A stretch of DNA of 64,000 nt from an uncultured Candidatus Actinomarina sp. (lineage in GTDB: Bacteria; Actinomycetota; Acidimicrobiia; Actinomarinales; Actinomarinaceae). A program made the translations under genes and the position numbers. Below are positions 10,448-58,019 of the stretch, one piece after another. Every line of letters begins with the position of its first letter. Within the stretch, counting starts at the first letter, position 1. The notes beneath the pieces were generated by a model. It had not been told where the DNA came from and made no database searches. It was given only the letters and a program-made list of their open reading frames with translations. The stretch covers positions 10,672 through 74,671 of the forward strand of contig CACOLU010000001.1 of the NCBI GenBank assembly GCA_902628045.1. Direction: 5' to 3'.

Positions 10448-10573
10448 CGATAAGTGAAACTACTAAATACAAATGCAAAAAGAAGGCTACAACTAAGAAG
10501 CCAAAAAAAGATTTCTTTTCAACTTTATTCACTATCAAATACTAGCAACAGTCTATTTTTTACGTAAACTGAG

Positions 10574-10729
10574 TTACTTATTTGCTTGTTCGTAAGCCTG
10601 GCTATAAAGAATAAGTGTTGGAGCCCAAAGTCCTACGTAAATCGCAAGTTGAGAATCATCTAATACAATATAAATGAGCACAGAAGCTATCACAGACACC
10701 ATGCTTGCATATAAACCTAGTTTTACCAT
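10574..10729 (-). CDS. putative 51-aa two-helix membrane micro-protein
   Basis: My own translation: MVKLGLYASMVSVIASVLIYIVLDDSQLAIYVGLWAPTLILYSQAYEQANK. Confidence 0.3.
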   Translation of the reverse strand: MVKLGLYASMVSVIASVLIYIVLDDSQLAIYVGLWAPTLILYSQAYEQANK

Positions 10730-10779
10730 ATTTCCTTTCTCGATTTAATTATACTATGTAAATTTGTTATGATAAAAAT

Positions 10780-10935
10780 ATGATAGAGACAATAACATCA
10801 TCGCCTTTGTTCTTAATTCTTTTATTTCCAGTAGGTACTCTTACCATATTCGTAATTGGTTTAATACGAGTAGATATTCGTGATTTAAGAGGAAAAGAAA
10901 CAGCTGGTCAAAAGCTTGCCTTAGAAGAAGAGTAG
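10780..10935 (+). CDS. putative 51-aa single-pass membrane micro-protein
   Basis: My own translation: MIETITSSPLFLILLFPVGTLTIFVIGLIRVDIRDLRGKETAGQKLALEEE. Same length class, topology, ALEEE C-terminus and TAG stop as the 9814 ORF. Confidence 0.3.
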   Translation: MIETITSSPLFLILLFPVGTLTIFVIGLIRVDIRDLRGKETAGQKLALEEE

Positions 10936-10962
10936 CAATTTGTCTCACCAAACTGTTTACAT

Positions 10963-16680: not shown

Positions 16681-17130
16681 ATGAAGTTTTATCGTAATAG
16701 AAGTAGTTTATACCTTCCACTTTTCAGAGGAAGTGTTCTTACATATGTTGGAGTCGACAACATTATTACTGGTCCATTCAGACAGTTAATGATTAAATAC
16801 TTTAGGCTTGGAGAGTTTGGTTCAAACGCAAGAGAAGAATATTTATATTATTTACTATTATTTTTTGGTCTTTTACAACTTCTTATAACAATACAAAGTG
16901 CATTCCAACCAGTTGTTGAAATAATAGATGACAAAGTTATTCTTCGAACGAAAGAGAAAGCACTTTCTGTTATTAAAAACACTTTTGATATTACTAATTT
17001 GGAACTAGTAAAAGATAATTTCTTACAGTTTTCTTTTGGAGAAGAGGTGTTTAATGTTCAAGTTGACGATGTCTCCATCAAAGAGCTACAAGAAGCATTC
17101 AAATCTTTTAATTTTTATGAAGAGGAATAA
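16681..17130 (+). CDS. hypothetical protein with one hydrophobic helix
   Basis: ORF trimmed to the ATG at 16681, because the GTG at 16606 would overlap the divergent gene's start. Confidence 0.45.
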   Translation: MKFYRNRSSLYLPLFRGSVLTYVGVDNIITGPFRQLMIKYFRLGEFGSNAREEYLYYLLLFFGLLQLLITIQSAFQPVVEIIDDKVILRTKEKALSVIKNTFDITNLELVKDNFLQFSFGEEVFNVQVDDVSIKELQEAFKSFNFYEEE

Positions 17131-17168
17131 TATTCAAAAACCTCGCGAAAAATACATTAATGAATCTC

Positions 17169-17197
17169 TTGCATAAGAACAAAAACAAACGTATATT
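17169..17197 (+). promoter_or_regulatory. sigma-70-like promoter candidate for RNA unit A
   Basis: TTGCAT (17169-17174), 17-bp spacer, TATATT (17192-17197). This places a start near 17204, at the conserved ACACTAT. Confidence 0.4.
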
Positions 17198-17203
17198 TAT
17201 AGA

Positions 17204-17293
17204 ACACTATCTGAAAAGAAATCGCAAGATAGAAAATAAGATAGATTAGAAAATCCCGAAGGGTCGCAAGATCAATCGGGATTTTTGCTTTTT
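17204..17293 (+). ncRNA. candidate small structured RNA, unit A
   Basis: P1 CTATCT(17207-12)/AGATAG(17239-44) encloses hairpin AUC-GCAA-GAU (17221-30). A terminator-like hairpin AAAATCCCGA(17250-59)...GGUC-GCAA-GAUC...TCGGGATTTT(17276-85) follows, then TTTTTGCTTTTT. Confidence 0.4.
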
Positions 17294-17393
17294 ACTAAGA
17301 GATTGATAACTAAAAAGCTCCAAATTTATAAAATTTATGTATAAAAGTTCGCGAAAAAAACTAACCAAAAAATATTGCCAAAGTATCAAAAGT

Positions 17394-17510
17394 ACACTAT
17401 TTTTAGATAACTATTTGAAATGAAGTCGCAAGACCGAATTAAAAATAGTACGAAAATCCCGAAGGGTCGCAAGATCAATCGGGATTTTCACTTTATATAA
17501 CCCTTTTTTT
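17394..17510 (+). ncRNA. candidate small structured RNA, unit B (paralogue of unit A)
   Basis: P1 ACTATTTTTA(17396-405)/TAAAAATAGT(17440-49) encloses hairpin GUC-GCAA-GAC (17425-34). The 37-nt hairpin at 17452-88 is identical to that of unit A. Confidence 0.35.
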
Positions 17511-17669
17511 TACAAAAAATAGCAAAAAGACTCCCCGTGGCTGTAAATTTTTGTTTTATCGTCTTCAAAAGTGGCTCAAAGCACGAAAGGAAGTCTTACT
17601 TATATTTTAGTATCTAGAGGATTATTTTTATTATTTGGGCAAAAAATAGGATGATTTATACTTAAATTC

Positions 17670-18437
17670 ATGAATATAGGCGCACATATACCCTCAAAAA
17701 ATGCAATTGAAGAGATAAAACAGCGAAAAGGTGACACTTTTCAAATATTTATATCCAGTCCACAGATGTGGAAAAGCCCGAAACCTCGAGAAGATGTCGA
17801 TATTTTACAAGATTATGAAGGGCCGATTTATGTTCACGCCCCGTATTTAATTAATGTTGCAACGCCTAACAACAAAGTACGTCATCCAAGTAGAAAACTA
17901 CTCAAAGACACTTGTAAAGTTGCAGCAAGTTTTGGTGCAAAAGGAGTCATTGTTCATGGTGGATCGGTTGGAGAAGGTGGAGATATCGGAGTTGGGTATG
18001 ACAACTGGAGAAAAGCTATAGAACATGTGGAAGACACCGGCATGAGAGTGTTAGTAGAAAATACAGCTGGTGGGAAAAATTCAGTTGCAAGATATATGGA
18101 TTCTATTGAGAGACTCTGGGAAGTCATTGGTCATTTAAATGTTGGACTCTGTTTAGACACTTGCCATACATGGGCTGGTGGTATTCCAACAGAGAATGCA
18201 GTAAGAGGGTTTAAAAAACTAGTTAAAAAAATAGACTTAGTTCACTTTAATGACTCCAAAGATGGTTTTGAGAGCTCTAGAGATCGTCATGAAAATCTCG
18301 GTAAAGGCCAAATTCCTAAGGCAGAACTTGAGTATGTTATTAAAAACTGCAAAACAGATATTGTTGTTGAAACACCGGGAGGGCTTGAAGCGCAGAAGAA
18401 AGACATTGCTTGGATTAAACGTCGTTTAAAAAAATGA
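17670..18437 (+). CDS. nfo: deoxyribonuclease IV (endonuclease IV)
   Basis: 255 aa; GAHI, VHAPYLIN, LVENTAG, LDTCH and HFNDSK...RDRHENLGKG motifs of AP endonuclease family 2. Confidence 0.85.
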   Translation: MNIGAHIPSKNAIEEIKQRKGDTFQIFISSPQMWKSPKPREDVDILQDYEGPIYVHAPYLINVATPNNKVRHPSRKLLKDTCKVAASFGAKGVIVHGGSVGEGGDIGVGYDNWRKAIEHVEDTGMRVLVENTAGGKNSVARYMDSIERLWEVIGHLNVGLCLDTCHTWAGGIPTENAVRGFKKLVKKIDLVHFNDSKDGFESSRDRHENLGKGQIPKAELEYVIKNCKTDIVVETPGGLEAQKKDIAWIKRRLKK

Positions 18438-19737: not shown

Positions 19738-20484
19738 ATGGCTTTTAGAAAAAATAATACATATAAATACGAATCTGGAAAAACTTTTAAGTTAAGCAGA
19801 AGCGGAATAGACAGTTTTATAAAATGTCAGAGATGTTTTTACCTAAATAAAGTCGGAAACATTAAAGATATTGGTATGCCAGGATTTTCATTAAATTCAG
19901 CCCACGATGAATTAATGAAGAAAGAGTTAGATACGTATAGAGAAAAAGCTGAAGCACATCCTTATATGGAAAGTCTTAACAAGAATTTAATTCCTTTCCA
20001 ACATGAAAAAATGGAGGAGTGGAGAAACAACTTCAAAGGAATAGCTTATCATCATAAAAAAACAGATTTAATAATTACAGGAGCTATTGACGACGTATGG
20101 ATAGACACAGATACAAATGAGTTGGTAATTGTTGAATACAAATCGACATCTACACAAAGTGAAATTGATTTAAATGATGGTACTCCCTGGAAGGAGCAGT
20201 ACAAAAGACAAATAGATATTTATCAGTGGTTATTTAGAATGAATGGATTTGAAGTCTCTGATGACAGTGTATTTTTATACTCAAATGGTATTAAAACAGC
20301 GGAGAAATTTAATGATGTTATGAATTTTAAAACATATGTTTTGGAATATAAAGGATCAACAGATTGGGTAGAGCCAAAGATTATTGAAATTAAAAAAGTT
20401 TTAGACCAAACGTCTATACCTAGCCTTAATGAAGAATGTGAAACATGTTCATACGTGGAATCAGTACAGGCTTACAATTTATAA
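19738..20484 (+). CDS. PD-(D/E)XK nuclease, Cas4/RecB-like with four Cys
   Basis: D...IVEYK core, QIDIYQW (QxxxY) motif, and CQRC (N-terminal) plus CETC (C-terminal) cysteine pairs. Confidence 0.65.
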   Translation: MAFRKNNTYKYESGKTFKLSRSGIDSFIKCQRCFYLNKVGNIKDIGMPGFSLNSAHDELMKKELDTYREKAEAHPYMESLNKNLIPFQHEKMEEWRNNFKGIAYHHKKTDLIITGAIDDVWIDTDTNELVIVEYKSTSTQSEIDLNDGTPWKEQYKRQIDIYQWLFRMNGFEVSDDSVFLYSNGIKTAEKFNDVMNFKTYVLEYKGSTDWVEPKIIEIKKVLDQTSIPSLNEECETCSYVESVQAYNL

Positions 20485-57705: not shown

Positions 57706-57764
57706 AGGCTTACTTCGCGAAAAAAATCTTTTTACAGATTATTTTCAACGTTTACTGTTTTAAT

Positions 57765-58019
57765 ATGCTTCAAATTAAGGTTTCAACTTGGCAGTACGAT
57801 GCTCTTTGTAGACAACACAGCAGTAACTTATTCTTTCCACCTGCCACTTTTGAAAAAAAAGAAGACCGTGAAAAAAGAGAGGCAAAAGCAAAATCTGTTT
57901 GTAGTGGATGTCCGGTAAAGATTGAATGCCTTGAAGAAGCAAATGAAATTTCCGAACCTTTCGGTGTTTGGGGTGGCCTCAATGAGGTAGAACGAAAAAG
58001 AGAAACTATTTACAATTAA
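57765..58019 (+). CDS. whiB: WhiB-family transcriptional regulator
   Basis: W...ALC......FFP...C..CPVKIEC...GVWGG four-Cys plus G[VI]WGG pattern. Confidence 0.9.
   Translation: MLQIKVSTWQYDALCRQHSSNLFFPPATFEKKEDREKREAKAKSVCSGCPVKIECLEEANEISEPFGVWGGLNEVERKRETIYN

Follow-up and report, generated by a model that had tools for sequence, protein, structure and literature searches.

A Candidate Family of Small Structured RNAs in the Streamlined Genomes of Candidatus Actinomarina

The Locus

The stretch of DNA analyzed here (hereafter, the window) is 64,000 nucleotides long and comes from an uncultured Candidatus Actinomarina sp. It is compact, with 33.4% G+C, approximately 96% of its length coding, and a median gap between genes of 5 nt. 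Candidatus Actinomarina as a group has approximately 1.1 Mb of DNA, a coding density of approximately 97%, a median spacer of 2–3 bp, and two sigma factors (PMC7771536; bioRxiv 10.64898/2026.04.03.716425). The gap of 539 nt at 17131–17669, just upstream of the endonuclease IV gene nfo, is the longest noncoding stretch of the window, as stated in the original prediction made on this DNA, and it houses the two units, A and B, that are the subject of this report. The second-longest apparent gap (10448–10962, 515 nt) contains small open reading frames of approximately 50 amino acids on both strands, which fall under the length cut-off used for open reading frames; a further unit or upstream box was looked for there and none is present. 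A search of the whole window for tRNA and tmRNA genes found none.

Units A and B lie in tandem on the plus strand, to which all coordinates below refer. They share a 37-mer, GAAAATCCCGAAGGGTCGCAAGATCAATCGGGATTTT, in two exact copies (17249–17285 and 17452–17488), for which the chance expectation is none; this identity, noted in the original prediction, is confirmed. Unit A opens with a box, CTCGCGAAAAA (17142–17152), whose TCGCGA palindrome is centered approximately at −58.5 from the inferred start. The putative promoter that follows (17169–17197) comprises TTGCAT (17169–17174), a 17-nt spacer, and TATATT (17192–17197), and it puts the predicted +1 near A17204 within ACACTAT; promoter and 5′ end are those previously proposed. 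A sigma-70 scan left this promoter out of its list because TTGCAT fits TTGACA at just three of six positions. RNA A, with an AUC-GCAA-GAU tip (type I, see below), is predicted to occupy 17204–17293 and is matched by the covariance model described below at 17203–17295 with 112.5 bits. Its first hairpin (H1) has an outer stem that pairs 17207–17212 with 17239–17244 and an inner hairpin at 17221–17230; according to both fold and covariance model, the second hairpin (H2) takes up 17249–17285 and runs into UUUUUGCUUUUU.

Unit B has the same layout. Its box, TTCGCGAAAAA (17348–17358), was recognized by pattern match and by conservation in the family, and its putative promoter (17375–17403; TTGCCA, 17-nt spacer, TATTTT) has 9 of 12 matches and is conserved among type II units. 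RNA B, with a GUC-GCAA-GAC tip (type II), is predicted at 17409–17495 (covariance-model match 17407–17498, 100.7 bits). The outer stem of its H1 pairs 17410–17416 with 17443–17449 around an inner hairpin at 17425–17434, and its H2 (17452–17488), again supported by fold and model, is followed by a weaker tail, UUUUCACUUUAUAU.

The predicted folding energies are −26.8 kcal/mol for unit A (17204–17295; z = −5.3) and −31.5 kcal/mol for unit B (17394–17500; z = −5.9), and in neither case was any of 200 shuffled sequences as good. Both folds contain an outer stem, a 3-bp hairpin capped by GCAA, and a hairpin composed of 11 bp, a 2×2 loop, and a GGUC-GCAA-GAUC tip, which reproduces the architecture originally described. 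Two details of that description require correction. Alignment of A with B and with other genomes places the homologous 5′ end of unit B at ATAACTAT (17407–17414); the heptamer ACACTAT, which had been taken to be common to both units, is at its position in B (17394–17400) the −10 region and, in comparison with other genomes, is not homologous to that of A. Likewise, the 10-bp outer stem earlier assigned to B is not homologous to the outer stem of A, whose counterpart is the 17410–17416/17443–17449 pairing. The RNAs are small, as had been proposed, with the upper end of the proposed range (approximately 90–115 nt) now abandoned: because B has its homologous 5′ end at 17407–17414, and not at 17394, both RNAs would measure approximately 85–90 nt.

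Anatomy and Conservation of the Module

Comparison with other genomes defines a conserved module of approximately 150–160 nt that extends from the box to the U tract, the RNA itself accounting for approximately 85–90 nt. Its parts come in the order (C/T)TCGCGAAAAA box, TTGC −35 element, TAtaTT −10 element, H1, and H2 terminator. Across at least 231 distinct units among the matches listed, conservation of the box is 90% or higher, and of 231 such units 226 have the −35 element at the same offset of 26 nt from it. Box, −35, and −10 at constant spacing point to a promoter of the unit's own directly upstream of the RNA.

H1 starts 1–3 nt from the inferred 5′ end and consists of a 5–7-bp stem, a purine-rich internal loop of approximately 9×9 nt, and a 3–4-bp tip closed by a GNRA loop. 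A linker of 3–4 nt leads to H2, which has an 11-bp stem, a 2×2 purine loop (AG/AA, AA/AG, or AA/AA), and a 4-bp GNRA tip, followed by the U tract. Two types can be distinguished. Type I, with an AUC-GNAA-GAU tip and the internal-loop strands GGAAAAGAA and AGAAAAGAA, has two locations, the main locus and a site upstream of a 5′-3′ exonuclease gene. Type II, with a GUC-GCAA-GAC tip and different loops, forms the second unit of the main locus, usually with a further conserved block (element 2, below) adjacent to it. The window holds one unit of each type, A and B, in tandem. H2 stem and tip followed by UUUUUGCUUUUU constitute a predicted intrinsic terminator; the U tract of type II (UUUUCAC) is weak, weaker than the tail of type I. 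A simple terminator scan missed H2, probably through the hairpin's internal loop.

The predicted structure is maintained across the family. In an alignment of 93 distinct sequences from genomes, which are close relatives recording few independent events and were fitted to the model, 93.2% of the cells are paired and seven pairs have changed on both sides; none of 500 shuffles reached the observed percentage paired, the pairs or the cells changed on both sides, or the covariation score. A similarly fitted alignment of 85 distinct metagenome sequences among the matches listed has six pairs changed on both sides, a count reached by 5 of 500 shuffles, with 0 of 500 reaching the other three measures. 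Controls in which the structure was slid along the two alignments gave 29%–52% pairing. H2 is paired in 100% of cells in the 93 genome sequences and in the 85 metagenome sequences among the matches listed, and its changes include A-U to G-C, G-C to A-U, and U-A to C-G. The outer stem of H1 shifts in both sequence and register (CUAUC/GAUAG, CUAUU/AAUAG, ACUAA/UUAGU, ACUUA/UAAGU). Both hairpin loops are GNRA throughout, in five variants (GCAA, GAAA, GUAA, GGAA, and GAGA). The covariation of the stems that had been seen between A and B alone is thus borne out by the wider family, GNRA loops included.

One pair of H2 is G·U in all 93 distinct genome sequences, where the other DNA strand would carry an A·C mismatch; this fixes the functional strand and counts against a DNA palindrome. 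Conserved G·U pairs together with GNRA loops suggest selection on one strand, as RNA.

Conservation goes beyond what pairing would demand. The RNA is 86%–95% identical where adjacent genes are 44%–62% identical at third codon positions and 74%–84% at positions 1 and 2, in loci picked by an exact match to a 28-mer of H2, which inflates the figure for H2 conservation; a scan blind to H2 still turned up only a handful of H2 changes. That the RNA varies less than codon positions 1 and 2 of the genes beside it implies an important function. The U-A and C-G pairs that close the tips are invariant in H1 and nearly so in H2, at positions where the fold alone would tolerate any Watson-Crick pair. We considered gene conversion as the source of H2 identity and judge it unlikely, since H1, no more than 50 nt away from H2, remains type-specific across species.

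Distribution and Copy Number

We scanned one genome per species with the exact 28-nt core of H2 as query and obtained 54 loci, nearly all of them labeled Candidatus Actinomarina, OCS155, or Actinomarinales. A second scan, in which the query was limited to the box, ACTAT, and the H1 tip and H2 thus played no part, added 24 loci in the same group and one chance match in a Bacteroidales genome, which the covariance model did not confirm. The covariance model, built from 59 sequences, recognized 119 units in genome loci, at least 110 in metagenome loci, and only two in the window. All of these matches (at least 229) are full length except where cut by a contig end, and all have the promoter, on the same strand; this search of relatives and metagenomes had been suggested with the original prediction. 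At least 231 distinct promoter-plus-RNA stretches were collected, all from Actinomarina genomes and marine metagenomes. Matches of the covariance model to the reverse strand score 20–34 bits, as opposed to 90–115 bits for the forward strand.

Tallied by assembly, the loci amount to approximately three copies per genome (range, approximately 2–5). Orphan H2 hairpins were sought with the covariance model and the scans in genome and metagenome loci, and none was found: the 37-mer never occurs apart from H1 and promoter, and it is restricted to a few conserved loci, on the promoter's strand. A dispersed REP-like repeat in both orientations and devoid of conserved upstream structure, the pattern that would have contradicted the original prediction, is thus not what the copies display. 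Viral contigs (by pattern search) and phage genomes (by blastn) contained no copy of the unit, and a phage or viral origin was rejected.

The metagenome scan covered marine contigs, those among the matches listed all being at least 1 kb long. Many of the contigs among these matches end inside a unit, as is expected where a repeat breaks assemblies, and the units thereby explain the contig breaks at this spot. A study of complete genomes found approximately two short internal repeats in most Actinomarina genomes, the longest repeat having a median length of 152 bp (bioRxiv 10.64898/2026.04.03.716425). The units described here may be the source of these repeats.

A Box Shared with a WhiB-Like Gene

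The box also occurs away from the RNAs. The version found in unit B, TTCGCGAAAAA, is present at 57714–57724 (+), upstream of a WhiB-like gene at 57765–58019 (Pfam Whib, E = 3e-21). In the units, TCGCGAAAA occurs 118 times; outside them, in 661 kb of Actinomarina sequence (the window and loci L001–L078), its only occurrences are one truncated unit at the end of a locus and the WhiB site. We fetched the WhiB-like gene from 51 genomes, 49 of which gave usable loci, and in 48 of the 49 ACTTCGCGAAAAAAA stands 50 nt before the ATG, in a spacer that otherwise varies. The palindrome lies upstream of the −35 element by 13.5 bp in the WhiB promoter and by 23.5 bp in the RNA units; this difference of one helical turn is consistent with a DNA-binding regulator common to both. 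We therefore infer that the same regulator may control the RNAs and the WhiB-like gene through the box; the box could instead be an element that sets promoter strength. Literature searches for TTCGCGAA as a known binding site returned primers and unrelated uses only. The shared box would tie regulation by small RNAs (sRNAs) to a gene of the WhiB family.

Proposed Function of the RNAs

From these comparisons we consider it reasonably probable that units A and B are two members of a small, seemingly Actinomarina-specific family of independently transcribed, structured sRNAs of approximately 85–90 nt. The proposal that the gap contains two sRNA genes accordingly gains support on comparative grounds, from the conserved promoter and from full-length units that covary. 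Each RNA would be driven by a sigma-A-type promoter (TTGC, 17 nt, TAtaTT), with the TCGCGA(AAAA) box approximately 58 bp upstream of the start presumably serving as the site of a DNA-binding regulator, and the U tract after H2 would end transcription. The RNAs would then be made as discrete transcripts that act in trans. We propose that they would work mainly through their fold, by protein binding or titration, the internal loop of H1 being the type-specific part. Such a mode of action is favored because UC-GNRA-GA is kept in both tips, the hairpin loops are GNRA and the internal loops rich in purines, H2 is near-invariant, and there is no long single-stranded seed; these features favor trans-acting RNAs that would be recognized by way of the invariant UC-GNRA-GA tips.

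A bolder form of this hypothesis, which we offer as speculation and think unlikely, is that the RNAs represent an abundant riboregulator of a new class that depends on its fold (one that titrates a protein with its two UC-GNRA-GA tips, for instance), co-regulated with the WhiB-like gene through the TCGCGA box in a central Actinomarina circuit, and that element 2 is a further new RNA tied to the locus. If so, a WhiB-like factor (Fe-S, redox- or NO-sensing type) and the RNAs would together form a central circuit of a highly abundant, gene-poor ocean bacterium.

The main rival is that the units encode sibling sRNAs that act by base pairing: the purine-rich H1 would pair with pyrimidine-rich sites in mRNAs, H2 would be a terminator and stabilizer, and types I and II would differ in their targets. 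Families that share a regulator box are well known in other bacteria, and the modular build of the RNAs, whose 5′ domain varies while the terminator hairpin at the 3′ end stays constant, would suit such a role, as would H1 loops that are type-specific yet conserved between species. However, the apical GNRA tetraloops are too small for a seed, and apart from them only the A-rich internal loops are unpaired, with a specificity that would be low at 33% GC. When we scanned H1 of A and B against the starts of the 79 genes of the window, the best duplexes were no better than those of shuffled RNA, and the invariance of the H2 sequence exceeds what a terminator needs. We regard pairing of this kind as a distinctly weaker candidate than the fold-based RNAs favored above; a cis-acting attenuator and a DNA-level repeat, taken up with the neighboring genes, are less likely still.

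Whatever their mode of action, it is of interest that an ultra-streamlined genome keeps a noncoding module of approximately 150–160 nt in three or more copies, and the family offers a handle on regulation in an uncultured, globally abundant bacterium of this kind.

Neighboring Genes

The stop codon of the gene upstream of a unit directly adjoins the box, so that read-in from that gene is possible. Downstream, the genes appear to have promoters of their own. Those for the cytochrome P450, the 5′-3′ exonuclease, nfo, and a lipoprotein each have a TAnnnT hexamer that ends approximately 6–10 nt before the ATG, often preceded by TTGnnn 16–17 nt upstream, which indicates leaderless genes with their own promoters. 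This layout is common in Actinobacteria. In the window, the predicted leaderless promoter of nfo (17635–17669, +) consists of TTGGGC (17635–17640), a 16-nt spacer, and TATACT (17657–17662), with 7 nt to the ATG at 17670, and it is conserved at the nfo loci of other genomes. The WhiB-like gene likewise has TAnnnT approximately 6–10 nt before its ATG, and around the unit loci mRNAs seem as a rule to lack leaders.

The gene that follows a unit is not constant. In many genomes a cytochrome P450 gene (422–424 amino acids, with its own leaderless promoter) lies exactly between the two units of the main locus, at a spacing of approximately 1468–1472 nt (L010, 3475–5094; L003, 4162–5780; and similar loci). 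In other genomes a reversed GNAT gene is found between the units or, as in the window (17131–17520), nothing. The spacer between the units appears from these comparisons to be a site of gene gain and loss at which both units are kept intact. Several DNA-repair enzymes are encoded beside units, namely endonuclease IV (nfo), the 5′-3′ exonuclease, a DNA alkylation repair enzyme, and a PD-(D/E)XK nuclease (19738–20484 in the window); this may be coincidence.

These neighbors bear on the possibility that the unit is a cis-acting leader or attenuator, in which transcription of the downstream gene starts at the unit's promoter, H2 terminates it conditionally, and read-through is controlled by a ligand or protein that H1 senses. 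Promoter, structured RNA, terminator, and gene make up the classic riboswitch layout; units share the orientation of the downstream gene in approximately 70 of 79 cases, H2 ends approximately 40–45 nt before the ATG at the P450 and 5′-3′ exonuclease loci, and the U tract of type II is weak. Yet with a −10 element of their own approximately 6–10 nt before the ATG, the downstream genes would yield mRNAs that lack the unit. At one locus it is a convergent GNAT acetyltransferase gene that follows a unit, and in the window unit A is followed not by a gene but by unit B. The downstream genes have no shared function, H2 is kept in sequence beyond mere pairing, and the folds of A and B show no antiterminator pairing that could replace H2; neither the 5′ UTR placement nor the mutually exclusive terminator and antiterminator folds of a riboswitch or attenuator were found. 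We thus consider this reading improbable: the downstream promoters, the convergent gene, and the tandem units favor separate transcription units. Some read-through beyond a unit is possible, especially for type II with its weak U tract.

Very improbable, finally, is a DNA-level or selfish repeat, that is, a REP- or MITE-like dispersed palindrome or a recombination site marking the borders of gene cassettes, for although the unit is multicopy in a genome nearly free of repeats, breaks many metagenome contigs (among the matches listed), and flanks variable content at the main locus (P450, GNAT, or none), complete copies (approximately three per genome) recur in many genomes at the same small set of loci in constant orientation and always with the promoter, on its strand, no terminal inverted repeats were seen when the sequences of the units were read by eye, the conserved G·U pairs and GNRA loops indicate selection on one RNA strand, and phage and viral collections hold no copies.

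Comparison with Known RNAs

The independently transcribed RNAs proposed here have no counterpart in Rfam. A search of the whole window with Rfam 15 at the gathering threshold gave no match, and for 17000–17750 at E ≤ 10 it returned chance-level matches only, of 9–19 bits against thresholds of 40–249; running this check confirms the initial impression that the RNAs belong to no recognized family. Our search of the literature on Actinomarina, Actinomarinales, and OCS155 found no such RNA, nor any other regulatory RNA described for Actinomarina, and searches with the exact sequence strings retrieved no paper. The putative GNRA-tipped sRNA family, though conserved, is so far undescribed.

Its organization recalls several known systems. 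The CiaR-dependent csRNAs of Streptococcus, LhrC1–5 of Listeria, and Qrr1–5 of Vibrio are sibling sRNAs with a shared regulator box; like the Actinomarina units, they comprise several paralogs of approximately 90 nt per genome, some in tandem, with a common box and their own promoter and terminator. In those RNAs the exposed seed loops are rich in C and U and pair with ribosome-binding sites, whereas the Actinomarina RNAs have GNRA tetraloops and purine-rich internal loops, and many genes nearby are leaderless; there is no sequence or Rfam relationship between the two. The 6C RNA (RF01066), a widespread two-hairpin sRNA of Actinobacteria, resembles the Actinomarina RNAs in its actinobacterial origin, its two hairpins followed by a terminator, and its similar length. 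Its loops are C-rich, with six or more cytosines, whereas those of the Actinomarina RNAs are GNRA in every copy, and cmscan gave no match to RF01066 at E ≤ 10. With the protein-titrating sRNAs of the CsrB/RsmZ type the Actinomarina RNAs share a short hairpin-tip motif that recurs both inside a single RNA and from one gene copy to the next, which is the basis of our proposal of protein titration; they differ in having only two copies of the motif per RNA, and in the motif being UC-GNRA-GA rather than GGA. We know of no CsrA-type partner in Actinobacteria. The Yfr2 family and Yfr103 of marine picocyanobacteria are likewise paralogous, highly conserved, structured sRNAs in the small genomes of abundant ocean bacteria, and the seven paralogs of Yfr103 are the most abundant transcripts in situ (PMC5069720). 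They belong to another phylum and differ in structure and size (290–328 nt for Yfr103), with no homology to the predicted Actinomarina RNAs. The specificity of the units would also make them a marker for Actinomarina activity in metatranscriptomes.

Element 2

A second conserved noncoding block, element 2, follows unit B at 17529–17595 (+; flanks approximately 17520–17612) and reads GACUCC ... GUGGCUGU ... UUUUUGUUUUAUC ... GUGGCUCAAAGCACGAAAGGAAGUC. The fetched loci contain 100 instances (80 distinct), each either 17–36 nt beyond a type II unit or downstream of a gene that has been inserted behind such a unit; none follows a type I unit. The listed blocks are invariant, and there is a closing stem, GACUCC/GGAAGUC. 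Element 2 has no Rfam match and no promoter of its own. We rejected a small open reading frame, as reading frames are unconserved in the alignment; a stable fold, with z approximately 0; and a leader of one particular gene, as the gene that follows is either nfo or the lipoprotein gene. The U-rich block of element 2 paired with the A-rich H1 loops no better than shuffled sequences did, and cofolding gained less than 1 kcal/mol. Element 2 may be a product of read-through.

Units Under Unrelated Taxa

Three public metagenome-assembled genomes assigned to unrelated taxa, a Methanosarcinales (L034), a Gammaproteobacteria (L204), and an Alphaproteobacteria (L243), contain a unit or an Actinomarina WhiB gene (81%–95% identity). 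These are probably Actinomarina contigs that were mis-binned.
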